Assembly: GCA_963974305.1 (NCBI GenBank)
Contig: CAXBCS010000005.1
Span: 1,537 to 65,536, forward strand
From: an uncultured bacterium
Lineage (GTDB): Bacteria; Bacteroidota; Bacteroidia; Flavobacteriales; Flavobacteriaceae
Length of the DNA stretch: 64,000 bases
Reading direction: 5' to 3'
The notes below the pieces were generated by a model. It was not told where the DNA came from, ran no database searches, and saw only the letters and a list, made by a program, of their open reading frames with translations. Below are positions 4,367 to 20,709 of this stretch, in pieces; positions within the stretch are counted from its first letter, which is position 1, and every line of letters starts with the position of its first letter. Made by a program: the position numbers and the translations under genes.

Positions 4367-5881
4367 TTGAATAAGAAAACCATCCTAATGATTCTCGATG
4401 GCTGGGGCGTCGCTCCAGACCAAAAAGTATCTGCCGTAGATCAGGCGCAAACCCCTTTTGTCGATAGCCTATATACCAAATATCCACATAGTACTTTACT
4501 CACTCATGGTGGTAACGTTGGGCTTCCAGAAGGTCAAATGGGCAATAGCGAAGTAGGGCATATGAATTTAGGAGCTGGTCGCATTGTGTATCAAGATTTA
4601 GCAAAAATTAATTTGGCAATTAAAAATGACACTTTAAAGGACGAAATAGTATTAAAAGAGGCTTTCGCCTATGCTAAAGCATACAAGAAACCCATTCACT
4701 TGCTAGGCCTCGTTTCTGATGGCGGAGTGCATTCTCATATTGATCATTTGAAGGGTCTTTTATTAGCTGCCGAAGAAGCTGGAATTCCGCAAACGTATAT
4801 TCATGCGTTTACAGACGGTCGGGATGTAGATCCAAAATCAGGTAAGGGTTTTTTGGAGGATGTAGACGCTTTCGCGAAAGCGCACTCGGCACAGCTGGCC
4901 ACAGTCATTGGAAGATATTATGCCATGGACAGAGACAGCCGCTGGGATCGTGTACAAAAAGCTTATGATCTGCTTGTCAATGGAAGCGGTACCTTATCAG
5001 AAGATATTGGTAAAAGCATGCAGGCAAGTTATGAGGCCGATATTACCGATGAGTTTATAGATCCTCTAGTGATGGCAGAAAATGGCAAGCCCATCGCTAC
5101 CATCGCAGAAGGAGATGTTGTAATCTTTTTTAATTTCAGAACTGATCGTGGTCGCGAACTTACACAGATGTTATCGCAAAAGGATTTTCCTGAACAGGGA
5201 ACTAAAAAACTTAATTTGCATTATGTCACATTGACTAATTACGACAACACTTTTGAAGAAGTAAACGTCGTATATGATAAAGATAATTTAGTCGATACTT
5301 TGGGTGAAACTTTGGCGAAAGCCGGAAAAACCCAAATTCGAATCGCAGAAACTGAGAAATACCCACATGTTACCTTCTTCTTTAATGGAGGCCAAGAAAT
5401 TCCATTTGAAGGTGAAAGTCGTCTTTTATGTCCATCTCCAAAAGTGGCAACCTACGACTTACAACCAGAGATGAGCGCCTATGATATAAGAGATAAAATC
5501 ATTCCTGAAATTGAAAAAGGAGAGGTTGATTTTATTTGTTTGAATTTTGCCAATCCGGATATGGTGGGACATACTGGTGATATGAAAGCCGCTATCAAAG
5601 CTTGTGAAGTGGTTGATAGTTGTACAGAATCTATTGTAACGGCTGCTCTTGAACATGAGTATACAATTATCATTATTGCCGACCATGGTAATGCAGAAAC
5701 GATGATCAATCCTGATGGATCACCTAATACGGCCCACACTACCAATCCAGTGCCTATTATTCTTGTCGACCCAGATATTAAAGAAATACGAAATGGAATC
5801 TTAGCCGATGTAGCACCTACTATCCTTGATTTATTAGGTGTTGAGCAGCCAGCAGTCATGGATCGTAAATCTCTGATATAA
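4367..5881 (+). CDS. gpmI: 2,3-bisphosphoglycerate-independent phosphoglycerate mutase
   Basis: ILMILDGWG, GQMGNSEVGH (phospho-Ser), HAFTDGRD, GRYYAMDRD, NPDMVGHTG, ADHGN; TTG start chosen. Confidence 0.96.
   Translation: MNKKTILMILDGWGVAPDQKVSAVDQAQTPFVDSLYTKYPHSTLLTHGGNVGLPEGQMGNSEVGHMNLGAGRIVYQDLAKINLAIKNDTLKDEIVLKEAFAYAKAYKKPIHLLGLVSDGGVHSHIDHLKGLLLAAEEAGIPQTYIHAFTDGRDVDPKSGKGFLEDVDAFAKAHSAQLATVIGRYYAMDRDSRWDRVQKAYDLLVNGSGTLSEDIGKSMQASYEADITDEFIDPLVMAENGKPIATIAEGDVVIFFNFRTDRGRELTQMLSQKDFPEQGTKKLNLHYVTLTNYDNTFEEVNVVYDKDNLVDTLGETLAKAGKTQIRIAETEKYPHVTFFFNGGQEIPFEGESRLLCPSPKVATYDLQPEMSAYDIRDKIIPEIEKGEVDFICLNFANPDMVGHTGDMKAAIKACEVVDSCTESIVTAALEHEYTIIIIADHGNAETMINPDGSPNTAHTTNPVPIILVDPDIKEIRNGILADVAPTILDLLGVEQPAVMDRKSLI
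4867..4882. repeat. palindrome CGCTTTCGCGAAAGCG, copy 2
   Basis: Inside gpmI, read as AFAKA. Confidence 0.95.
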
Positions 5882-9750: not shown

Positions 9751-9993
9751 ATGAAATCTAAAACCTTAAAACTAATTTTGTTTGGCTTCCTAGCCCTTAT
9801 TTCTAGTGGTGCTGGGGTGGCATATGGAGTCCAAGTATATGTAGGCATCCATGCATTAGTTGTAACCGATTACAGTGATTATCTATATGGGCGTCTTGGA
9901 CTTCTAACACTAGTTGCTCTTGGAATTGCTGCACTCGCTCTCTGGGTTGGATTTTGGGCCATTCGGAAGTTTAGAAAAGTGCTAAAGAGTTGA
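9751..9993 (+). CDS. small two-TM membrane protein
   Basis: 80 aa, two hydrophobic segments, basic C-terminus. Confidence 0.6.
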   Translation: MKSKTLKLILFGFLALISSGAGVAYGVQVYVGIHALVVTDYSDYLYGRLGLLTLVALGIAALALWVGFWAIRKFRKVLKS

Positions 9994-9998
9994 GAAAT

Positions 9999-11012
9999 TT
10001 ATTTCAGAAGTAATTTTTCAAAACCAGCGGTCACATAGGTTCCCGTTGAATCATTCTCTTTGGCAAATACAAGATAAGCATCAACATCCTTTAGATCAGA
10101 TAATACAGCTTTAGATTTTTCTAAACCCATTGCCATAAAAGCAGTAGCATATGCGTCGGCGGTGGCGCAATCTTTTGCAATTACCGTTGCTCCTAAAACA
10201 TCACTTTTTTCTGCACTCCCCGTCAAAGGATTGATGGTATGCACATACTGTTGTCCCGTTTGCTCATCTACTCTATTTTTTCGATAATTCCCTGAACTCG
10301 CCATTGACAGATTCTCTAAGGCAACGACAGCAACATGACTGCGATTATCTTGTTCAGAGTTGACACTTTCTACACCTACTGTCCAAGCTTTTAAACTACT
10401 TTGATTTTTACCACTTCCGCGAACTTCTCCGCCTAACTCAATTAAGAAATGTTGTAAAGCACGAGATTCTAAATAGACCGCGATTCGATCGATACCATAG
10501 CCTTTAGCTACCGCATTAAAATCGAGGTAGACTTCTGGGAATTTTTTGGAAATCTTGCCGTTTGGCGAAATTGCGATTTTATCCAAACCTACATACTGCA
10601 TCATAGAATCCAAGCGTAGGCTGTCAAAAACGGCAATGGGTTTTGTATCTCCAAAACCATAGGCATTGCGCAAACCTCCAACCGTTGGATCAAAGTAATG
10701 GTACGTCGTTTCATATACCTTTCGCGAAAGCGTAAACACTTCTTTAAACATTTCGTCCACGATCACAGTAGTATTTCCCCTATTGATTTTGGAAATATCA
10801 CTTTGAGGTATGTAGGTAGACATGGATTTATTTACTCTATAAATCACAGAGTCTATTCCTTTTTGAACCACTGCTGCATTCTCTGCTGTACCATAATATT
10901 TAACAGCATAGGCCGTCCCAAAGGCTTCTCCTCGCAGTGTGATTTCATCAACGGTTTCAGGGCCACTACAGCCAATAATAAACAAGCAGATTAGTGAAAG
11001 TAAAAAGCGCAT
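9999..11012 (-). CDS. apbE: FAD:protein FMN transferase ApbE
   Basis: Lipobox IIGC; MSTY...SDIS.IN, FDPTVG, LDFNAVAKGYG, ELGGE, MASSGNYR, INPLTG, ADAYATA. Confidence 0.95.
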   Translation of the reverse strand: MRFLLSLICLFIIGCSGPETVDEITLRGEAFGTAYAVKYYGTAENAAVVQKGIDSVIYRVNKSMSTYIPQSDISKINRGNTTVIVDEMFKEVFTLSRKVYETTYHYFDPTVGGLRNAYGFGDTKPIAVFDSLRLDSMMQYVGLDKIAISPNGKISKKFPEVYLDFNAVAKGYGIDRIAVYLESRALQHFLIELGGEVRGSGKNQSSLKAWTVGVESVNSEQDNRSHVAVVALENLSMASSGNYRKNRVDEQTGQQYVHTINPLTGSAEKSDVLGATVIAKDCATADAYATAFMAMGLEKSKAVLSDLKDVDAYLVFAKENDSTGTYVTAGFEKLLLK

Positions 11013-11014
11013 GA

Positions 11015-11374
11015 TTAGATTTCTTGGAGTCCGTTATAGATAAGCGTATACGGCTCGTCTTTTTCGACTGGATGTTGATAATTATCACCATGACCCAGCC
11101 CCACACCTGCATAAAAGGTACGCGCTTCAAACTTGAGCGCATGCTCTTTCATCTTTAGCATAAAAGGAGTGTCATATAGGTTGGCATCATCTGGAAATGA
11201 TTTAGCACGTACGATTACAAAGTGTAGTTTTTTATCTTTTAAAGCAACAAATTGAGGATCCTTTTTGAGTTTGGAATTGACACCCATAAACTCATATCCT
11301 TGTTCTTCCAATTCCTTCCCAACAATGTTCATTGCGAGATTGTGTAACTCCTGCTCTGTAAGAAATACCGCCAT
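11015..11374 (-). CDS. small conserved protein upstream of apbE; function unknown (family often labelled NQR subunit F but not homologous to true NqrF)
   Basis: 119 aa from ATG 11374; ends 2 nt before apbE; no FAD/NADH/Fe-S motifs. Confidence 0.75.
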   Translation of the reverse strand: MAVFLTEQELHNLAMNIVGKELEEQGYEFMGVNSKLKKDPQFVALKDKKLHFVIVRAKSFPDDANLYDTPFMLKMKEHALKFEARTFYAGVGLGHGDNYQHPVEKDEPYTLIYNGLQEI

Positions 11375-11387
11375 TGAACAAAGATAC

Positions 11388-11410: not shown

Positions 11411-13408
11411 TTACTTGTTCAATACCTGTTTGAAATAAGCCGCTTTTTGAGTATCTCCAAGCTCGGTATACAAAAGCACGACTTCTTTGCCTAACTCGGT
11501 GTCTGTCGTGTCTAGTAAAAACGCTTTTGCTAGACTATCTGTAGCAATAACTCCTCTATTAATAGCTCCATAAAACTGGGCGACAGTCATCCAATATTGT
11601 TTTTGTTTAGGAATTGCAGGATTGGCAATCGCCATCGTGCTGAAACCTTTTTGTAAGGCGGCATGTGCCGCTGGCTGCTTGACCAAACTTAATAAAAAGG
11701 TATAGGCAGCCTCTAATTGTGGATTCACGACAAGAGCATCTTTAATTGCATCTACTGCTTTTGAGTACTGTTTTATAGCGGCATAACAATAAGCCGAATT
11801 GAGCAACATATCAGTATTTGACCCATCAATTGCTTTTGCCTTTTCAAAGAATCCCAGTGCCGCATTATAGTCTTTATAGTAGGTGTACTGAATCGCACCC
11901 AAATTATTTAAAACATAAGGTTGATGTGCATCAATCTCTAAGGCACGCTCATACAATGCCTGGACTTCTTTTATATGTTCTGTGCCCTTTGGCTCAAGTG
12001 ATCTTATAGGCAAAGTTGTAAACAGTTCATCAGCGAGAAAGGTATGTGCTCTAAAGGAGTTTTGTAAATGTTTGATATCATGACGATATAAGACCAAAGT
12101 ATTTTCCCAGTCGTCATTGCGCTCAATGGTTCGCAAACTATATATCCCAATAATAAAAACAAGACAGCTTAACAATGCAATATTTGCCGTTTGCATAGAA
12201 AATTTCGCTTTCGCGAAAGCGTAGCCACGCCACAACAATATTCCAAGAACCAAAACAAATCCAACAGAGAATATATAAGCAAATCGTTCGGCGACAATGC
12301 CTACCATTGGGTATACTAAATTGACAACAATTGCCATTACACCCAACCATATGACCAAGGCCAAGCCTAATACATCGCGTTTCAAGAATTTAATAATACC
12401 ATAGATCCCTAAAGGAATAAAAATCAAGATCGCCACCCATACTTGCCAATAAGAAAAATCAGCCAAAGGAATCTGACTGTATCCATAATAAAAGGAAAGA
12501 TCTTCTGGAAAAATGAGTAGTTGTAGATATAAGAATGCCGAGTAGCATCCAATACCCACACGAGTTAGAAAACTATCATCAACAAATAACGGATTTTCAA
12601 AAAATTGAAAGGTTCTAAATTCTTCCCCTGGAATGGCCGCTCTTAGGACTAAAACTATCACTAAAGACAGAGTCACCGAACCCACTGCCATTAAAATACG
12701 TTTGCCAGAGGTACTCGTATAGTATAGAAGTACAGGTATCAACCCAAAAAAGGCTAAGGAGCTCATCTTACTTAAGAATGCCAGTAAAGCCAAGGCACCA
12801 ATTCCCCACAAGCGTTTTTTCAAACCTTCCCTTGCAAATCGCACACATTCTATGAGTGCCCATAGCAGGAATACCATCATTAATAATTCGTCTCTACTCT
12901 TAATGTTATTTACGACTTCCGTATGGATAGGATGCACCATAAATAATATGGTAATGATAAGCGGTAATCCAAAGGAATAGCCTTGAAGAACCATGCTCAG
13001 GAGATAGAGTAGTAAAAAACCATTTAAAGCATATAATAGAATATTAATAAGGTGACTAACATTGGCCTCGGTAAGCACATTATTGTCTAGCTTTTCCTGG
13101 GGTTGCTGAGAATCTGGCAAAGCGCCAAAGAGGGATTTTTCTATCGCAAAGGTCGTATGTGTTAATGGGCGATATTCAAAGCGTGTTTCTCCATCATCTG
13201 CATAATAATTGGTAAAAAGTCCGGGGATATTCTCAATACCATCTGCTGTTTTAGGATTTCCATTAGTGACATAATAATCATCCATGCCATATTCATTATC
13301 GATGGCATTGAAATACACTAAAAAAGGGAGTAACAGTACAAAAAGATAGCTCAATTTGCGTTGTCTTGCAGTAAATTTTAAAATCATAAAGAACCTAAAC
13401 TTAGTCAA
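11411..13408 (-). CDS. TMTC-like GT-C glycosyltransferase with C-terminal TPR repeats
   Basis: MDDYY loop, EYRPLT, HPIHTEVVNNIKSRDELL, LSK, VAERFAY, RNDDW, then TPR-like helices; about 11 TM segments; start may be ATG 13387. Confidence 0.85.
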   Translation of the reverse strand: MTKFRFFMILKFTARQRKLSYLFVLLLPFLVYFNAIDNEYGMDDYYVTNGNPKTADGIENIPGLFTNYYADDGETRFEYRPLTHTTFAIEKSLFGALPDSQQPQEKLDNNVLTEANVSHLINILLYALNGFLLLYLLSMVLQGYSFGLPLIITILFMVHPIHTEVVNNIKSRDELLMMVFLLWALIECVRFAREGLKKRLWGIGALALLAFLSKMSSLAFFGLIPVLLYYTSTSGKRILMAVGSVTLSLVIVLVLRAAIPGEEFRTFQFFENPLFVDDSFLTRVGIGCYSAFLYLQLLIFPEDLSFYYGYSQIPLADFSYWQVWVAILIFIPLGIYGIIKFLKRDVLGLALVIWLGVMAIVVNLVYPMVGIVAERFAYIFSVGFVLVLGILLWRGYAFAKAKFSMQTANIALLSCLVFIIGIYSLRTIERNDDWENTLVLYRHDIKHLQNSFRAHTFLADELFTTLPIRSLEPKGTEHIKEVQALYERALEIDAHQPYVLNNLGAIQYTYYKDYNAALGFFEKAKAIDGSNTDMLLNSAYCYAAIKQYSKAVDAIKDALVVNPQLEAAYTFLLSLVKQPAAHAALQKGFSTMAIANPAIPKQKQYWMTVAQFYGAINRGVIATDSLAKAFLLDTTDTELGKEVVLLYTELGDTQKAAYFKQVLNK
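12206..12221. repeat. palindrome CGCTTTCGCGAAAGCG, copy 3
   Basis: Inside the TMTC-like gene, read as AFAKA. Confidence 0.95.
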
Positions 13409-13474
13409 ATATAACCATTCTTAATAAAGAAAAATACAAGCTAAAAAAATGAGTAACACGCAGCAATTAATTAC

Positions 13475-14134
13475 TCAACGTCTCAAATTTAAAGGAATCG
13501 ATGGTAAAATCACTTTATAAATTGTTTCTGGCAAGTCGTTTATTAAAGGAAGATCAACTTCTGAAAAACTGACATTATCCCAACCTAATGGCGTGGTTTC
13601 TTTGGCCGCTCTCATTAGCCCGCGACGAAGTTTTTTAGTATGATTGAGATAATTTTCTTTTTTAAGAAAAAGCCATATTCGATCTTCTTCATGTTCCTCT
13701 TTAAACTGTTTAAAACCAAGATATTCATTAAACCCAATTGCCTTTTGATTGTCTTTGCGCACTTCAATAAATATTTCCTTCATATCCATAAGGTAAAAAT
13801 GGAAATCTAAAACACAAAGTGCTGAGGCTACAGCTGTTCGGGATGCTAAAAACTGTTGATCCCAGATAAAAATACCAGCTTCTATAGTCATCTCTTCGAA
13901 TGAACGAATATTTCCATTGAGCAATCCTACACGTCTTCCCTTTGCTTCTATAACAAAATAATAGTGCATCGCATTATCAATGCTGTCAAACCATTTTTCT
14001 TGATCTGCCTTTGTAATTTCTTTCTGATAAAACATGCGGGTACGTATCGCTGGGCTATTCCGCTCTAGGCGTACCAGTTCTAAGTCGGCTTTTTCCAACC
14101 GCCTTAGGGTCACATTGTATTTTTTAATAATCAT
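13475..14134 (-). CDS. GNAT N-acetyltransferase (PseH/RimJ-like)
   Basis: LRRLEKADLELVR..RN, ITKADQEKWF, V..DN.KAI.F...LGF. Confidence 0.8.
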   Translation of the reverse strand: MIIKKYNVTLRRLEKADLELVRLERNSPAIRTRMFYQKEITKADQEKWFDSIDNAMHYYFVIEAKGRRVGLLNGNIRSFEEMTIEAGIFIWDQQFLASRTAVASALCVLDFHFYLMDMKEIFIEVRKDNQKAIGFNEYLGFKQFKEEHEEDRIWLFLKKENYLNHTKKLRRGLMRAAKETTPLGWDNVSFSEVDLPLINDLPETIYKVILPSIPLNLRR

Positions 14135-15048
14135 AATTCCTTCTGTGCAATGGAGTACATAGGCTTACTGTTTAAAACAATGAAAATATGCTTTATATAA
14201 CCTCCAACAACTCCAAAACATAGTAAAATTAAGCTCGTTGAGAATAGTATGGTCACAATGAGAGCAGTAAAACCACGTACGGGAACATCATAAACAAATC
14301 GAGCAATTACAAAAATAATTCCCGCTAAAAAGCTTAGGGATGATAATAATAAACCACCTAGAGTCATAACTTTCAAAGGCCAGGTACTGTAAAATAAAGT
14401 AGATTTCGCTACCATTCCAAATAGTTTGCCTAAGGAATATCCAGAACGCCCGTTGGGTCTTTTGTAATGAGATACTGTTACAAAGGCAATTTCGTTAGTA
14501 TACCAAAAAAGTACTTCGTCTAAGAAAATAAAATGTCTATTATGCTGAAGCATTTGATCTACAAGGCTCCGTGAAAGCAAACGAAATGACGACCCTTTGT
14601 GTGGTCCACCTTCAAGAAGTTTACTGCCAGAACGGAGAATACTACTTCCCAATTTACGCCAAAAGGAATGCTGTTTCTCGCCAACACCATATACCAGATC
14701 GGTCAGTGTATCCTTCTGTTTTTGAATTAGTTTAGGAATATCTTCAGGTGTATTTTGCAAATCATCATCTATAGATATTACAAAGTCTCCTTTGGCATTT
14801 TGAAATCCACAAAAGGTGGCGCTATGCTGACCATAATTACGCGAAAAGCGGATGAGTTTAACAGTTTCAGGGAACTGCGCTTTTAATAATTGTAAGACTT
14901 GCCAACTACGATCCTCTGAATAATCATCGACAAAAATTACCTCAAAACTACCCTCAAGGTCTGCAAAAGTAGCGTGAATACGAGCGTACAAATCTTCAAG
15001 CGAGACAGCGCTATTATACACCGGAATAACGACAGAATAGAGGATCAT
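14131..15048 (-). CDS. GT2 polyprenol-phosphate glycosyltransferase (ArnC/GtrB-like)
   Basis: SVVIPVYN, VDDYSED, SRNYGQH, IDDDLQN.PEDIP, two C-terminal TM helices. Confidence 0.9.
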   Translation of the reverse strand: MILYSVVIPVYNSAVSLEDLYARIHATFADLEGSFEVIFVDDYSEDRSWQVLQLLKAQFPETVKLIRFSRNYGQHSATFCGFQNAKGDFVISIDDDLQNTPEDIPKLIQKQKDTLTDLVYGVGEKQHSFWRKLGSSILRSGSKLLEGGPHKGSSFRLLSRSLVDQMLQHNRHFIFLDEVLFWYTNEIAFVTVSHYKRPNGRSGYSLGKLFGMVAKSTLFYSTWPLKVMTLGGLLLSSLSFLAGIIFVIARFVYDVPVRGFTALIVTILFSTSLILLCFGVVGGYIKHIFIVLNSKPMYSIAQKEL

Positions 15049-15147
15049 TCGTTTAATATTAGATCTAGACTAGGGTCCATTTTAAAACTAAAATTGTCTC
15101 AAAACAATTACATTTGCAAGTATAAACATTTTTATTGGCACACCTTT

Positions 15148-16272
15148 ATGATCCCATTTAATGTCCCTTTCGCATCTGGAGATGAATTGACACAGATTTC
15201 GGCGGCAATAGCCGATAATAAGCTCTCTGGTAATGGACATTTTACAAAAAAATGTAAAGCCCTTTTCAAAGAAAGGTATGGTTTTGATAATAGCTTTTTA
15301 ACCACGAGTTGCACAGCGGCTATTCAGATGGTTGCAATAGCCATGGACTTAGAAGCTGGAGATGAAATTATACTTCCTTCTTATACCTTTAGTTCTACAC
15401 CAAATCCCTTCTTGATTGCAGGAGCCACAGTAAAATTTGCCGATTCAGAACCTGATCATCCTAACGTTTCTTTAAAGTCTATAGCTTCTCTTATTACCCC
15501 AAAAACAAAGGCTGTCATGGTGGTGCATTATGGCGGATACGCTTGCGATATCATAGGTATCAAGGCATTGTGTGACCAACATGGTTTGCTTTTAATAGAG
15601 GATGCTGCTCAATGCATACAGGGCTTTTACCAAGGGAAACCTTTAGGGAGTTTTGGAGACTTTTCGGTATTTTCTTTTCACGAAACCAAGAATATCCACT
15701 GTGGAGAAGGCGGACTGCTTGTTGTCAACAATCTGGATTATGTAAATAAAGCAGAGACCATTTGGAACTACGGTACAAATAAGAAAGCTTTTTTAAGCGG
15801 GGAAGTCGACAGCTATGAATGGACAGGATTAGGACTTTCATTTTGTCTTTCAGAGATCAATGCTGCTTATTTATACGCCCAATTACAGCATGTTGAAAAA
15901 GTTACACAAACACGAAAATCACTTTGGGAATCCTACTTTCGAGCTTTGAAACCTTTAGAGAAATTAGGGCTACTCAAACTCCCACAAATTAAGGGAGAAG
16001 ATAGCAGTTATCATACCTTTTATGTGTGTACGCTTTCGCGAAAGCGGTATCTCGACCTTCAAAAACATTTACTCACTAATTTTGTTTTGGCTGTACAGCA
16101 CTACTACCCTTTACATGAAAGTGCCTTTGCTAAAGCAGAAGGCCTCAGTGCAGATTTACCCAATGCTAGTTATTTTGGAGATAACCTTCTGCGATTACCA
16201 TTGTATGAAGGCTTAACAACAACTCAAGTTGACCAAATTACCAAGCTTATTTTAGATTTCTACAAAAACTAG
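15148..16272 (+). CDS. DegT/DnrJ family sugar aminotransferase, WecE/RffA-like
   Basis: TTSCTAA, PSYTF.ST.N.F, VHYGGYAC, EDAAQ, FSFHETKN..CGEGG, AAYLYAQL. Confidence 0.88.
   Translation: MIPFNVPFASGDELTQISAAIADNKLSGNGHFTKKCKALFKERYGFDNSFLTTSCTAAIQMVAIAMDLEAGDEIILPSYTFSSTPNPFLIAGATVKFADSEPDHPNVSLKSIASLITPKTKAVMVVHYGGYACDIIGIKALCDQHGLLLIEDAAQCIQGFYQGKPLGSFGDFSVFSFHETKNIHCGEGGLLVVNNLDYVNKAETIWNYGTNKKAFLSGEVDSYEWTGLGLSFCLSEINAAYLYAQLQHVEKVTQTRKSLWESYFRALKPLEKLGLLKLPQIKGEDSSYHTFYVCTLSRKRYLDLQKHLLTNFVLAVQHYYPLHESAFAKAEGLSADLPNASYFGDNLLRLPLYEGLTTTQVDQITKLILDFYKN
16031..16046. repeat. palindrome CGCTTTCGCGAAAGCG, copy 4
   Basis: Inside the WecE-like gene, read as LSRKR. Confidence 0.95.
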
Positions 16273-17015
16273 TTTCCTTTCAAAGCATTGAGAAAGTCGG
16301 GACGTTTATTTCTAGAAACTGGCACCTTATTATTTTCTGAGAGTAGTACATAGCCCTCATTGAGGTAACGTTCTATGTGGTCAAGATTAATGAGATGGGA
16401 TTTATGTACATGATAGAAAAGACTGTGGTCAAGCATTTTTGTAAAATGCCCAATACTACTGGAACTCAGTAACGGTTTTCCATTTTGAATGATAATCTTG
16501 GTATATCCATCTACTCCTTCGCAACGAATAATATCTGCAATGGTGATAAATTCTAGGCCATCTTGTGTAGGCACAACGATTTTCTTTTTCTGAAATGTCT
16601 GTACGCCCATATTGGCGATGAGCTGCTTGTTCTTTTTTAGAGCGTCTTTAGACTCGACATTCTGAATGGCTTTGGAAACCGTTTGAATGAGATCTTCGCG
16701 ATCTAAGGGTTTGACGAGATAACCAATAGCACAATGCCGAATAGCTTCCAAAGCATAAGAATCGAAAGCGGTGGCAAAAATGATTTCAAAATCAGGCGTA
16801 CCCACTTGGGATAGTAGTTCGAAACCATTCATTTCTGGCATTGCAATATCCAAGAATACCAAATCTGGCTTAAGGGATTGGATCAATTCAATCGCTTCAT
16901 GAGGATCTTGTGATTGTGCAATAATCTCCAATTCGGGACAGTACCGCTCTAATTTGCTTTGTAGAATGGCTAATGCCTTAGGTTCATCATCTACTATTAT
17001 TGTCCTAATCTTCAT
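16269..17015 (-). CDS. LytTR-family response regulator
   Basis: IIVDDE, LVFLDIAMP, FATAF, YLVKP receiver; IIRCEG..GYT and VHKSHLINL LytTR domain. Confidence 0.95.
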   Translation of the reverse strand: MKIRTIIVDDEPKALAILQSKLERYCPELEIIAQSQDPHEAIELIQSLKPDLVFLDIAMPEMNGFELLSQVGTPDFEIIFATAFDSYALEAIRHCAIGYLVKPLDREDLIQTVSKAIQNVESKDALKKNKQLIANMGVQTFQKKKIVVPTQDGLEFITIADIIRCEGVDGYTKIIIQNGKPLLSSSSIGHFTKMLDHSLFYHVHKSHLINLDHIERYLNEGYVLLSENNKVPVSRNKRPDFLNALKGN

Positions 17016-17802
17016 GATCTATCATACTATTAAACGTAAGGTGTACTGCTGTCCCTACTGGATTTTGTAATTCCTCAACACTATGTTCAATATGCCATTT
17101 TCCATTATATTCTAATAATTTAAGGCGGTCCTGCAATACAGTAGTCGATCTATTTTCGATGGTCTTTGTGGTTTTCTTAAAAAGCTCTTTGGCAGCCGTA
17201 AGACCTATTCCATCATCAATGACAGAGACTTGGAAGCCATCATCTTCTAGTGCCCTAAACTCAACCTTAATTGTTCCTGATCCTTTTTTGTGAAAGATGC
17301 CATGATTGACGGCATTTTCTACTAAGGGTTGTAATAACATCGAAGGGATTTCTGTGTCATCTTCCAAAGCATCATCAACGGTTATCTCATAATGAAGCCT
17401 ATCTTCAAAACGCAGTTTTTCAATGGATAAATAGTTATCAAGAAGATTCACTTCCTCCTCAAGTGTAATCGTTTGCTTACGCGAAAGTTCAAAAAAGGCT
17501 CTGATCAATTTAGAGAATTTCGAGAGATATTCTTCAGACTGCTCCACTTCATTACGTTGAATATAATATTGAATCGCATTGAGGGAATTATGCACAAAAT
17601 GCGGATTCATTTGTAAGCGTAGCGCCTGAAGTTCTATCGCATGCATTTGTTGTTGGATTGCTAATTTATCTTCATAGTTTTGAGTAATGAGTGAGTTACG
17701 CTTTTTGACAAAAACTGTAAAAACAAAAATAAGAGCAACCACCATTATTGCCAAAACAATCCCTATTCCCACCACTACAATGCCTATTTTTTCATCGGAC
17801 AT
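17005..17802 (-). CDS. LytS/YehU-type histidine kinase, single TM, no own sensor domain
   Basis: LRLQMNPHFVHNSLN H-box, LLQPLVENAVNHG, DDGIG; only one N-terminal TM helix. Confidence 0.93.
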   Translation of the reverse strand: MSDEKIGIVVVGIGIVLAIMVVALIFVFTVFVKKRNSLITQNYEDKLAIQQQMHAIELQALRLQMNPHFVHNSLNAIQYYIQRNEVEQSEEYLSKFSKLIRAFFELSRKQTITLEEEVNLLDNYLSIEKLRFEDRLHYEITVDDALEDDTEIPSMLLQPLVENAVNHGIFHKKGSGTIKVEFRALEDDGFQVSVIDDGIGLTAAKELFKKTTKTIENRSTTVLQDRLKLLEYNGKWHIEHSVEELQNPVGTAVHLTFNSMIDHED

Positions 17803-18398
17803 AACATCGCTTTAATAAAACATGAATACAATACTGCATTTGTAAAAAAGGTGAGGATTAATGAAATCTCACGAGTTATTGATATGTCTAATTTAATCGC
17901 CCATGATAAAGGCAGGTACCCTAAATTAAATATTAGCAGACCAATAGTAATCCAAAATTCCGCTAGTCTTAAAAACTGCACGACTTCATCTGATTTTAAT
18001 AAACGCACATAAAATCTTACCGTGAGATAAAACAGTATTATAGTACCTCCAGTTTGCGCGATTATAAGTGGCTTAGAAATATCTTCAACTATAAAACTTA
18101 TTAATAGCAGGACAAAGTATAGAACAAGAAGTCTGATTACATAAATACGCTTACTAAGCACTTCGTAAAACCACAAAATAAAAAATGAAAACATAAGAAC
18201 ATCAAAAATGGTGTAGAAGATATTGTCAATACGTCTATCATCACTAAAATATGCCCCAGTTTCAATAAGGATTACCATTGCGAAATAATACCCGAAATTC
18301 CTCAGTGATGTCTTACTAATCTGTTTGTATCTATAGATACTAACTAGCAAAGCCGTAATCACTAGAATACGAAACCCTAGAATCGCAAAATCTCCCAT
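17784..18398 (-). CDS. stand-alone 7-TM membrane protein
   Basis: 204 aa with seven hydrophobic segments; FWITIGLLIF..G..P and NAVLY motifs; overlaps the kinase start by 19 nt. Confidence 0.8.
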   Translation of the reverse strand: MGDFAILGFRILVITALLVSIYRYKQISKTSLRNFGYYFAMVILIETGAYFSDDRRIDNIFYTIFDVLMFSFFILWFYEVLSKRIYVIRLLVLYFVLLLISFIVEDISKPLIIAQTGGTIILFYLTVRFYVRLLKSDEVVQFLRLAEFWITIGLLIFNLGYLPLSWAIKLDISITREISLILTFFTNAVLYSCFIKAMLCPMKK

Positions 18399-18418
18399 AA
18401 TTACTAATCTTATATAAG

Positions 18419-18949
18419 TTATGGTCTTCCGTCATATCCTGGTGGAGGTGGCGGCGGTGGATCCTTTTTAGGATCAGTATTACCTAATGGATCCATACGA
18501 TCGTAGTTGGTTGTAGGTAGAAATTCTTCGTTAATCGGCACATATATTGGATCAATTTCTGACTCAGGCTCAACTATTTGAGCAGCTTTAAAAAATACAG
18601 TCGATTTAGGTGTATTTGTATCATCAGGTACTGCAGCAAAATATACAATCATTGCTGTTTTATCAATATTATTCTCTTTTTGATATTCCTTGATTTTGAT
18701 GAGATACTTCTGCAAGTCCTCTATATCAGTAACAACAGCCCCAATATTATCAGCAGATTCATTGGCCGGATATTGACTCTCAAGACCAATATTGATAAAT
18801 TGATGTTGATTTTCTATGAATAATGACTGCATAGAAGCTGCTTCTTCATCAGAAATAATATTCTCAGGATCCCCAGATGGGCAATCACAACAGGAAGTCA
18901 TAAATAGTCCGACTGCGCAGAGCAAGAGTATTCGTTTTAAATTTTTCAT
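18419..18949 (-). CDS. lipoprotein with poly-proline C-terminal tail
   Basis: MKNLKRILLLCAVGLFMTSC lipobox; VYFAA and STVFF core; ends DPKKDPPPPPPPGYDGRP. Confidence 0.8.
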   Translation of the reverse strand: MKNLKRILLLCAVGLFMTSCCDCPSGDPENIISDEEAASMQSLFIENQHQFINIGLESQYPANESADNIGAVVTDIEDLQKYLIKIKEYQKENNIDKTAMIVYFAAVPDDTNTPKSTVFFKAAQIVEPESEIDPIYVPINEEFLPTTNYDRMDPLGNTDPKKDPPPPPPPGYDGRP

Positions 18950-19026
18950 TAGAATGGTTTTAAATGTTAATGTAAAATACAATTAAATAAATTGTTGCAT
19001 TCGTTATATCCCAGTATCACAATAAT

Positions 19027-19539
19027 CTAGGATCTTGTTACTGGCTTAATAATAAGCTTAATTTTTCCTATAACACTAGGATCAAATTTTTCATCTCTTT
19101 TAGAATTTTGATTGGCAACTTCGACTGTGATAACCTTTCCCACGAGTTTTGTGTTTTCATCATTGGATGAATTTTGGTCAAGTTTAGCAGTTGACTTTTT
19201 AGTTGTATCAAGCTTCTGTTGATCGGCTCGATCTTTAAAATTAATACCTGCCTTAATGGAATTATCAACTTTCATATCGGCCACTTTCTTAGAAAAGGGA
19301 ACATCAATATGCGTTTTTAATCGCTTATTTACTTCCGATACCTGATTTTCCAAATCTGAAGAATTTATTTCTTTTTCTAAAGTACCAAATACCAGTGGAA
19401 TCTCAATTTCGGCAGCTTCTATAGCCAATTGGATTTGCGAATGTTCATCAGTTTCAATTTCGTTTTGTAAATAAGTATTAAAGTCAAAACTTTTTAAAAC
19501 TTCATACTGTACCATTGATATAAAATAGGATAATTCCAT
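19027..19539 (-). CDS. hypothetical cytoplasmic protein (N-terminal helix plus terminal beta strands, Trypco/DUF2589-like layout)
   Basis: MELSYFISMVQYEVLKS helix, IQLAIEAAEIEIPL strand, GKIKLIIKP C-terminal strand; family link is a resemblance only. Confidence 0.65.
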   Translation of the reverse strand: MELSYFISMVQYEVLKSFDFNTYLQNEIETDEHSQIQLAIEAAEIEIPLVFGTLEKEINSSDLENQVSEVNKRLKTHIDVPFSKKVADMKVDNSIKAGINFKDRADQQKLDTTKKSTAKLDQNSSNDENTKLVGKVITVEVANQNSKRDEKFDPSVIGKIKLIIKPVTRS

Positions 19540-19558
19540 AAGACAAAATATTTTAAGA

Positions 19559-20386
19559 TTAAACTTCTATTGACGGAAAAGAACTTGTTCTAAAATTGAT
19601 TTTCACTCCTCCAATAATGTCTGCACTCATATTAACTGCAGCAGTCGATTTCTCGTTTACTACCTTGACTCGCACTCGACTCGAAGTATAGCCTCCACTT
19701 ACGTTGGCCCTTCCCCAGCCCCATCGCGCTGAAGCTGATCCTTAAACTCCCCATTTATTGGATTTTGAGTCAATATCATAAGTTCTGCTTTCGGTAAAAT
19801 CAGTTGAATCAATATGAAAAACAAGTTTGGTTTCAACGAGACCATTTGTTATCTCAACCTTTTGCATTCCAAGTTTTAAAATGGTCACGAGCATATTATA
19901 ACTCTCTGATGCAGATTGTGATATTTTTTCAAGTACGAATTTTTGAAGATCCAATTTTGAAATTTTCTTTGCTGAAGTTCCAGTAATTTTTGCTTTCAGA
20001 TCTACTTGATTATTGCCCTCAGCAATAGTTACGTTTTGAAAATGAGATTGCATAGCCTCAATATCTTCGTCTACAAGATTCACATTAGCTCCAGTACCTA
20101 AAGTCAGCCCTAAAACTTCCTCTATGTAATTGTCTAACGAATCCTTATCCTCGGTATTAAGCGCATCAAAGTCGGTTGAACTAATTCCTGTAACCTCCTT
20201 TTGATATTCAATAAGAGGTTTTGAAACTTCGGCTACGAGCTGTGAATAAGCCTTAAGTTGTTCCATAGAAGAATCAACCACAATTTTGTACACGTTCCGT
20301 ACAAGGTCTGAAGTAAAGTCTACAAAGCCAATGTTTTGTACATTTCCAAGTTGTTCCATGGCTTCATCTGCTGATGTATTTGACAT
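19559..20386 (-). pseudogene. 275-codon gene with an internal TAA; helical N-terminus and amphipathic beta-hairpin C-terminus
   Basis: ORF 19742..20386 stops at TAA 19742-19744, but the same frame continues 60 codons (GSASARWGWG...FPSIEV) to TAA 19559-19561, 19 nt before the next ATG. Confidence 0.8.
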
Positions 20387-20683
20387 AATTATTAATTTTA
20401 AAAGTGCCTACTCTATTTAACAGAGGCTTTTCGGCTTCCACCTACATGTATGCTTAATTCTTAAGGGAACATATTCAAGGAAGGAAGTGCCTTAGCACCG
20501 TGAATACAAGAGCAATAGTACTGTAAGAAGGTAAGCCCTACCATAGCCAATTCAGGAAAGGTAGCTTTGAATCTATGAATGGTAAGAGGGAGTAGATAAG
20601 GTTTTTTCTAAAGAAAGGAGATGAATATAATAGGTATGGAATCATTGGAAGGAAGCCAACTTACCCAAATTGTAGCCACAAAA

Positions 20684-20709
20684 AAACCCGATACAGCTGT
20701 ATCGGGTTT
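20684..20709 (-). terminator. nqr operon terminator
   Basis: Perfect palindrome AAACCCGATACAGCTGTATCGGGTTT, with a T run on the minus strand after it. Confidence 0.75.

Follow-up and report, generated by a model that had tools for sequence, protein, structure and literature searches.

Circuits in which a response regulator with a LytTR domain and a membrane-linked histidine kinase stand beside candidate effector genes are known from the quorum and lysis systems AgrCA, ComDE-cibAB, BlpRH, and LytSR-lrgAB. A second described arrangement is the liaIH-liaGFSR layout of Bacillus, in which an effector pair comes with membrane proteins, an intramembrane-type kinase, and a regulator. A third is found in prokaryotic defense, where the Pepco layout and protease-gated pore effectors (Pepco/Trypco, EACC1, and bacterial gasdermin) have been described (bioRxiv 10.1101/2025.11.14.688446). 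Here we compared with these systems a locus of six minus-strand genes, g1 to g6 (20386..16269), which lies in a 64,000-nt stretch of an uncultured Flavobacteriaceae bacterium (GenBank assembly GCA_963974305.1, contig CAXBCS010000005.1, positions 1,537 to 65,536; this whole stretch is referred to as the window). A preliminary description of the locus had proposed one unit in which a peptide-sensing LytTR circuit is joined to a putative pore- or oligomer-forming pair. Our analysis suggests that the six genes are probably two separable modules brought side by side in the variable stretch that follows nqrF: module A, a mobile gene pair led by a DUF805b RNA and broken in this genome, and module B, a resident LytTR signaling cassette.

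The list of open reading frames (ORFs) and the sequence bore out the gene arrangement originally given, with six co-oriented genes separated, from g1 to g6, by gaps of 19, 77, and 20 nt and then by overlaps of 19 and 11 nt. The terminator scan detected no terminator-like hairpin on the minus strand between 20386 and 16269, and co-transcription of the six genes is therefore possible. Scans for sigma-70 promoters, whose model is ill-suited to Bacteroidota, stayed at chance level, as did scans for TAnnTTTG. It also found the nqrF terminator that had been said to insulate the unit on its upstream side, an intrinsic terminator at 20709-20684 on the minus strand with a hairpin of 11 pairs followed by a T-run. 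The first gene, g1 (20386..19559), has 275 codons and belongs to an uncharacterized family. It is interrupted at codon 215 by an in-frame TAA (19744-19742), and the 19-nt gap between g1 and g2 holds only if this codon is read through. Its uncharacterized partner, g2 (19539..19027), encodes a protein of 170 aa. The cassette that follows consists of g3 (18949..18419), encoding a lipoprotein; g4 (18398..17784), encoding a stand-alone multi-pass membrane protein with about seven transmembrane segments (7TM) by hydropathy; g5 (17802..17005), encoding a histidine kinase; and g6 (17015..16269), encoding a response regulator with a LytTR DNA-binding domain. All of these lie on the minus strand.

Comparison with related loci showed that the two parts of this arrangement occur independently. 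First, the cassette is found in place without the pair. In the same-genus genome G172 (locus L034), the order is nqrD/E/F, an OmpA-like gene, a gene for a 433-aa lipoprotein, orthologues of g3 to g6, and a 120-aa gene whose window counterpart is at 11386-10994, and both g1 and g2 are missing. Genome G160 likewise carries the same cassette after nqrF, with a hairpin upstream of the cassette and no pair. The g3, g4, g5, and g6 proteins are 41, 38, 57, and 71% identical, respectively, to their G172 orthologues, and the G160 orthologues of g3 and g6 are 41% and 71% identical. Second, the pair is found without this kind of cassette. Among the other pair loci examined (a profile search covered about 30, many lying on short contigs), none has a LytTR regulator close to the pair, and the linkage was seen in the window's species only; the recurrence in other genomes that would mark a single unit did not turn up. 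Third, the pair travels with its own leader. About 230 nt on the 5′ side of g1 are conserved in locus L047, whose g1 is 77% identical, and in the same-genus genome G164, and the alignment of the three defines a conserved non-coding leader or promoter region at 20473..20621 (minus strand). The genes upstream of the leader in L047 and G164 differ from those in the window, and neither has nqrF there; in G164, a further 1.2 kb upstream of the leader is without any match in the window, nqrF included. Since the leader is kept despite different upstream genes, the pair moves together with it. Finally, the cassette has conserved upstream sequence of its own. A promoter-proximal block, TATTTAnnTnTATTTnA...AACCATTCTAAT (18948..18989, minus strand), lies just upstream of g3 and is common to the window, G172, and G160, although the g3 protein is only 41% identical. 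The conserved stretch is about 45 nt long in the three genomes, occurs once in the window, and has no counterpart in the g1 leader. This suggests that the cassette keeps its own promoter-proximal region in the 77-nt gap between g2 and g3.

The boundaries of the two modules and the occurrence of each without the other are plain from these comparisons. Of the unit proposed at the outset, the conserved pair, the LytTR two-component cassette, and the possibility of co-transcription stand; the joining of the two into one unit does not, given that the LytTR linkage was seen in this species only, that G172 and G160 have the cassette without the pair, and that the cassette has its own upstream block. 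The alternative mentioned in the preliminary description, accidental accretion in an island, is the best fit to the synteny data. A caution follows from this case: co-orientation and missing terminators did not suffice to define a system here, and it was the comparison with relatives that split the locus into separable modules.

The g1-g2 pair itself is genuine, conserved, tightly linked, and uncharacterized. A g2 homologue of 129 to 179 aa lies directly 3′ of g1 in 33 fetched loci from several phyla. Named records of the pair come from Erythrobacter, Syntrophomonadaceae, Metabacillus, and a Flavobacterium metagenome-assembled genome, and the remainder are Bacteroidota-type or metagenome contigs. 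Aequorivita sublithincola DSM 14238 carries an intact pair (Aeqsu_2558 and the gene after it). Pattern scans for pair loci returned 11 genome loci and 18 metagenome loci, the latter mostly short. Where g2 is absent, the neighbor of g1 is a g1 paralogue, as in L013, L045 (Polyangium), L046 (Bryobacteraceae), L063, and L065, the last being a Burkholderia plasmid with four g1 paralogues. A profile search of 1.84 billion representative proteins collected 1260 representative clusters of the g1 family at E<=1e-3. At the genome level, g1 was present in 1 of 33 other genomes of the same genus, 1 of 150 genomes of the family, and 0 of 400 genomes of the order; the plasmid collection gave one match, in Burkholderia, and the phage collection none. 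The pair is a rare, horizontally moving two-gene unit. Its family is sizeable, spans several phyla, and is described in no database; compared with the cassette, whose architecture is a new variant, and the RNA leader, which is a known element, the undescribed pair family is the more interesting part of the locus.

Neither protein of the pair matched anything in Pfam, NCBIfam, PADLOC, or PHROG, and the same screens were empty for g3 and g4. In the g1 protein, a linker rich in Ser, Gly, and Trp joins a helical N-domain to an amphipathic beta-hairpin at the C-terminus. The g2 protein begins with an amphipathic helix and a beta-hairpin; a variable linker rich in Lys then leads to a second beta-hairpin at the C-terminus, which ends in IKLxIKPV. 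Transmembrane segments and signal peptides are absent from both sequences. In the AlphaFold2 model of g1 (predicted local distance difference test [pLDDT] score of 66), residues ~20 to 175 of the N-domain form a confident helical bundle and residues 181 to 261 fall under a pLDDT of 50; the model of g2 (pLDDT 58) shows a helix and two hairpins at low confidence. Confidence limited to the helical domain is what would be expected if the hairpins fold only on assembly. The g1 profile matched no PDB sequence. Foldseek searches at E<=1e-3 with these models, both of which have low-confidence regions, returned no match in PDB or BFVD for g1 and none in PDB for g2. Sequences of the g1 type were also seen together with BNR/Ycf48-like repeats: in P0120 (549 aa), the N-domain is fused to such repeats, and in the Polyangium locus L045 a BNR/Ycf48-like protein (9911-11032) is encoded beside the tandem g1 paralogues.

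In this genome, g1 is broken by the TAA at codon 215. Reading to the first stop yields 214 aa, and the last 60 residues are lost, including the hairpin VxVKVVNEKSxAAxNxxxDIIGxVxINFRTxxFP, which is the most conserved part of the protein. All 37 g1 homologues from a word-index search (267 to 343 aa) align through the stop position. Five near-identical metagenome contigs (L004-L007 and L072) have CAA (Gln) there. The preliminary description had spoken of a repaired strain, and correctly so, with homologues typically running to ~270-280 aa. In g1, the L072 haplotype equals that of the window except for the stop base and one other site, and it still has CAA; thus, the nonsense change is either very recent or an assembly error. 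Drift after truncation was considered and ruled out, as both amino acid differences downstream of the stop are also present in the intact L072 allele. With g1 deprived of its hairpin by a very recent nonsense codon, the pair module is probably inactive in this genome.

The leader of the pair ends in a DUF805b RNA motif (Rfam RF02914; 20405..20444, minus strand), which scored 42.1 bits in cmscan against a gathering score of 35.6 (E = 1.1e-9) and is separated from the g1 ATG by 18 nt. A DUF805b copy about 20 nt before g1 was also found in L002, L008, L009, L043, L047, L048, L062, and L063, and L044 carries a DUF805 variant in its stead. Counting the window, DUF805b precedes the pair in 9 of the 10 Bacteroidota loci with readable upstream sequence, and the tenth has the related DUF805. 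Three of these loci have a further copy before the gene that lies 5′ of g1; this gene encodes a vWA protein in L002, an S8 protease in L009, and a CBM/T9SS protein in L048. Among 29 distinct copies, stem pairs 2 to 4 were paired in 100% of cases, with 2 to 5 pair types each, and the pseudoknot pair between loop and tail was paired in 90% (G-C 12, A-U 9, C-G 2, U-A 2, and G-U 1); the ATG is mostly 20 to 22 nt downstream. In its above-threshold score, hairpin, pseudoknot covariation, and fixed spacing of ~20 nt to the ATG, the window element agrees with the described motif, and structurally there is no difference.

DUF805b exceeded the cut-off in 66 of 151 genomes of the family, where the genes behind it are very diverse accessory genes, such as those for secreted proteins, lipoproteins, and double-glycine (GG)-leader peptides. 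We found no literature discussing DUF805b, and the main text of its source survey (PMC5737381) makes no mention of the motif. The genes of the g1 family and of its vWA, S8, and CBM neighbors are new additions to those preceded by the motif, and this so far unexplained RNA leader thereby gains a clear gene association. In four other Flavobacteriaceae genomes (L099, L103, L117, and L123), DUF805b lies directly before short ORFs with leaders of the double-glycine type (for example, ...VTNGG followed by VSCGGG..., and ...SVKGG followed by CCGW...); these are likely bacteriocin precursors or precursors of ribosomally synthesized and posttranslationally modified peptides. Many other copies precede a conserved family of secreted proteins of ~225 aa with the motif RRIGNVFINYD. 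The window's own genome, outside the window at C5:78165-78196 (L093), has a sub-threshold DUF805b copy of 30.3 bits before a gene for a 197-aa secreted Cys-rich protein, which is followed by a gene for a CPBP-type intramembrane protease.

Module B has the composition of a split-sensor two-component cassette. The g3 protein (176 aa) has a hydrophobic N-terminus with a signal peptide, a lipobox-like Cys in MTSC, and a Pro-rich tail; an alternative TTG start is present at 18982. The g5 kinase has a single N-terminal transmembrane segment and no sensor domain, with Pfam matches to His_kinase PF06580 (1.5e-22) and HATPase_c, and g6 matches Response_reg (7.8e-22) and LytTR (1e-14). The g4 protein is presumed to be the sensor partner of the g5 kinase. 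That g4 and g5 might be one frameshifted kinase was ruled out, as both ORFs, overlapping by 19 nt as here, are also present in G172. The gene order of the cassette, with a homologous stand-alone 7TM protein gene that overlaps the gene of a sensor-less kinase, was seen in the window, G172, G160, and the C13 contig of the same genome, as well as in L002, L008, L048, and L062. The module is thus a member of a Flavobacteriaceae family of split-sensor cassettes with LytTR or NarL outputs, defined by a lipoprotein, a stand-alone 7TM protein, a sensor-less kinase, and one of the two regulator types. Related genes lie elsewhere in the genome. At C13:16300-19300 (L071 4334-7320), the same genome encodes a second cassette with a g3-like protein, a 282-aa 7TM protein, a HisKA_3 kinase, and a GerE regulator, directly followed by an mscL-like gene and then a lipoprotein gene. 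At C1:186000-188849 (L070 5006-7849), a g3-like lipoprotein gene is followed by three tandem g4-like 7TM paralogues up to the contig end, and G172 has four tandem g4-like 7TM paralogues ~20 kb from its LytTR cassette.

Compared with the LytTR quorum and lysis circuits, the cassette differs in several respects. The kinase belongs to PF06580 (LytS/YehU type), but its sensor has been lost and a separate 7TM protein is its partner; it is not a kinase of the AgrC/ComD type (HPK10) with a fused polytopic peptide sensor, since g4 has an ORF of its own both in the window and in G172. Between 16269 and 20680, no ORF or domain was found that corresponds to a pheromone precursor (GG-leader or AgrD) or to a processing or export gene, and g3 encodes a lipoprotein. 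The description of the circuit as peptide-sensing is therefore not supported. Moreover, g1 and g2 are soluble and unrelated to holins, LrgAB, or bacteriocins: with no transmembrane segment and no match to LrgA or LrgB, they do not constitute a holin/antiholin-like output of the LytSR-LrgAB kind. The linkage of the cassette to the pair also does not recur in other genomes.

We propose the following working model for the two modules. Module A (~20621-19027) is a two-gene unit with its own ~230-nt leader, ending in a DUF805b pseudoknot ~20 nt before the start codon. Its two products are predicted to be soluble cytoplasmic proteins, which may assemble via their C-terminal amphipathic beta-hairpins into a hetero-oligomer, and this oligomer may be a latent, possibly membrane-active effector. 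In both proteins, hydrophobic and charged residues alternate along the C-terminal strands, which have high beta hydrophobic moments. How the pair might be gated is hinted at by its neighbors elsewhere, which include cytoplasmic subtilase, vWA, CHAT, and STAND proteins and, in several Flavobacteriaceae-type loci, a 7TM two-component cassette. Module B (18989-16269) is a resident cassette composed of a lipoprotein, a 7TM protein, a sensor-less kinase of the LytS type, and a LytTR regulator; it may use the 7TM protein and the lipoprotein to sense a cue from the membrane or envelope, in the manner of intramembrane-sensing kinases. Any coupling of the two modules here might take the form of read-through from A into B or of regulation of A by B; neither module would require either.

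The neighborhoods of the pair in other genomes gave some indication of what it may do. A cytoplasmic S8 protease (subtilase) adjoins the pair in L009, in L042 (Bacillota), and in L065 (Burkholderia) and lies within 5 kb of it in L010. A TPR-CHAT protein is also near the pair in L009, and a STAND protein with cyclase, AAA16, and TPR domains as well as a patatin is near the g1 paralogues in L065. The latter locus, on a Burkholderia pyrrocinia plasmid (NZ_CP091309.1, 393494-410294), looks like a large conflict system; its operon of unnamed proteins includes four g1-like paralogues and an S8 protease, together with the STAND-like protein (zinc-ribbon/cyclase/AAA16/TPR), the patatin, and a protein with a weak Trypco2 match. 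The vWA protein of L002 (4683-5930) and the S8 protease of L009 (3966-5777) have in common a Cys-rich C-terminal domain of ~120 aa (35% identity, E = 2e-24), and the genes of both lie just upstream of the g1-g2 pair with their own DUF805b leaders. In L047, the closest pair locus outside the species, a lanthipeptide-leader-domain ORF (5229-5423) and a TPR/AraC regulator adjoin the pair. With proteases, STAND proteins, and two-component cassettes around it and a mobile distribution, the pair is a candidate for a new effector of bacterial conflict or stress systems. We hold the effector reading only tentatively and put it somewhat short of an even chance. A more elaborate version, which we regard as doubtful, is that g1 and g2 represent a two-component family not described before, whose cytoplasmic members form hetero-oligomeric effectors via their hairpins and stay latent until released, in some phyla by a cytoplasmic protease, vWA, or STAND partner and in Flavobacteriaceae by fast-diverging 7TM two-component cassettes together with translational control by DUF805b; such a cell-death or competition effector would have swapped proteolytic gating for transcriptional gating.

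Several points weigh against the reading of two separable modules of which one is a broken effector pair. With regard to the effector, the neighbors of many pair loci in other phyla are unrelated housekeeping genes, and the pair has no significant similarity to any pore former. An hhalign comparison of the g1 and g2 hairpins aligned the expected segments, but the match (E = 0.16) was not significant, and the indications of an effector or pore role consist of genomic context and a sequence pattern. With regard to the broken state of g1, the TAA could be a sequencing error. With regard to separability, there is no terminator between g2 and g3, and cassettes of the same architecture as g3 to g6 stand beside the pair in L002, L008, L048/49, and L062. 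The 7TM genes of the g4 type number only ~1 to 5 per genome (profile search in five genomes), so that repeated adjacency to the pair is unlikely to be pure chance, which argues for a functional link. By a rough estimate, the adjacency in three of ~7 distinct Bacteroidota arrangements exceeds the chance expectation.

These last points bring up the foremost alternative, that all six genes form one autoregulated operon in which a density- or contact-sensing LytTR circuit drives a g1-g2 pore or oligomer as a lysis, fratricide, bacteriocin, or abortive-infection output. We consider it rather unlikely. The short gaps, common orientation, and lack of an internal terminator fit such an operon, as does a nonsense codon in what would be a costly effector, and the presence of DUF805b before GG-leader, bacteriocin-like peptides in other genomes hints at a competition-related gene set. 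Also in its favor are the cassettes that adjoin the pair elsewhere, which are of the NarL type and not of the LytTR type. These four-gene cassettes, found in L002 (Aequorivita sublithincola), L008, L048/49, and L062, are divergent from the pair on its upstream side and encode a g3-like or other first protein, a membrane protein of 202 to 225 aa, a HisKA_3 kinase, and a GerE (NarL-type) regulator. A domain weakly similar to g3 is encoded by the first gene of NarL-type cassettes, and the membrane proteins of these cassettes are homologous to g4 (hhalign probability of 96.6%, E = 4.7e-10); the L062 7TM protein was recovered by a profile built without it (E = 4e-16). These cassettes do not appear to be orthologous to that of the window and are scarcely so among themselves: identities are 15 to 25% for the 7TM proteins and 41 to 56% for the regulators, compared to 52 to 66% for g1, and the regulators of the pair-adjoining cassettes are 35 to 42% identical to an unlinked paralogue in this genome.

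Other evidence tells against a single operon. The LytTR-type cassette is linked to the pair in this species only; in G172 and G160 its orthologue occurs by itself, as does the pair in most loci. No 7TM cassette adjoins the pair in L009, L010, L043/44, and L047. The conserved block upstream of g3 is not shared with the g1 leader. Searches with 6-nt seeds found no direct repeats of the LytTR-box type in 20380-20700 or in 18940-19040, that is, upstream of either g1 or g3; the sequence upstream of g3 does contain a conserved tandem TATTTA/TATTT block of 10 nt, whose spacing is unlike that of the usual LytTR boxes. A pheromone gene and an exporter are lacking, the kinase is not of the HPK10 type, and the other 7TM cassettes (in G172 and at C1 and C13 of this genome) are not beside DUF805b-led genes. 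It is still plausible that 7TM cassettes in general control the pair, and two separable modules are the explanation that we favor for the window.

A second alternative is a Lia-like envelope-stress module, in which the kinase and the 7TM protein would detect membrane damage and induce g1 and g2 as a protective cytoplasmic membrane scaffold comparable to LiaIH/PspA, with no toxin involved. The gene order is similar to that of liaIH-liaGFSR in that the candidate effector pair is followed by membrane proteins, a kinase of the intramembrane type, and a regulator. The pair-linked cassettes of relatives are of the HisKA_3/GerE type, as is LiaSR, mscL lies behind another cassette of this genome, and the g1 model predicts long helices. 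However, g1 has no match to the PspA_IM30 profile in Pfam and none, in sequence or fold, in PDB that would indicate PspA, Vipp1, or another ESCRT-III-like protein; g4 has no sequence or fold similarity to LiaF; and the regulator here is of the LytTR type. In addition, the pair is rare, mobile, and sporadic in distribution, unlike a core stress response, and its protease, CHAT, and STAND neighbors point to conflict systems. Taken together, this makes the alternative improbable.

The protease-gated pore effectors offer the remaining comparison. As in the pair, these are small cytoplasmic proteins with an amphipathic helix and beta-hairpins and a sporadic distribution, and several genomes with the pair have cytoplasmic serine or cysteine protease and STAND neighbors. 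The differences are that no significant sequence, profile, or fold match was found, that the window and most pair loci have no protease, and that the pair family is two-component (g1 and g2, or g1 paralogues). For bacterial gasdermins, PADLOC gave no match, and Foldseek found none for the g1 model, whose confidently predicted part is helical. That g2 and the g1 hairpin are divergent Pepco (Trypco1/Trypco2) protease-activated beta-barrel pores is very improbable: the g2 layout looks alike by eye (N-terminal amphipathic helix, beta-strands, and a tail ...IxLxLKP, with four Trypco2 examples and the published description matching), the first protein of the Burkholderia operon with g1 paralogues has a weak Trypco2 match (E = 0.0098), and subtilases neighbor the pair in several loci, but no pair protein matches Pfam Trypco2 (g2 and 19 homologues), PF19631 finds nothing in the genome at E<=10, the hhalign profile-profile comparison is not significant (E = 0.096, probability <1%), and this genome has neither an adjacent protease, S8 proteases being adjacent only in L009, L042, and L065, nor a homologue of the Cys-rich adaptor domain.

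The region on the other side of the cassette is variable as well. A glycosylation cluster (DegT aminotransferase, GT2, GNAT, and TMTC-like proteins) occupies window positions 11411-16272, between g6 and the 120-aa gene at 10994-11386, and is an insertion relative to G172. This means that the stretch after nqrF holds at least three independently variable blocks.

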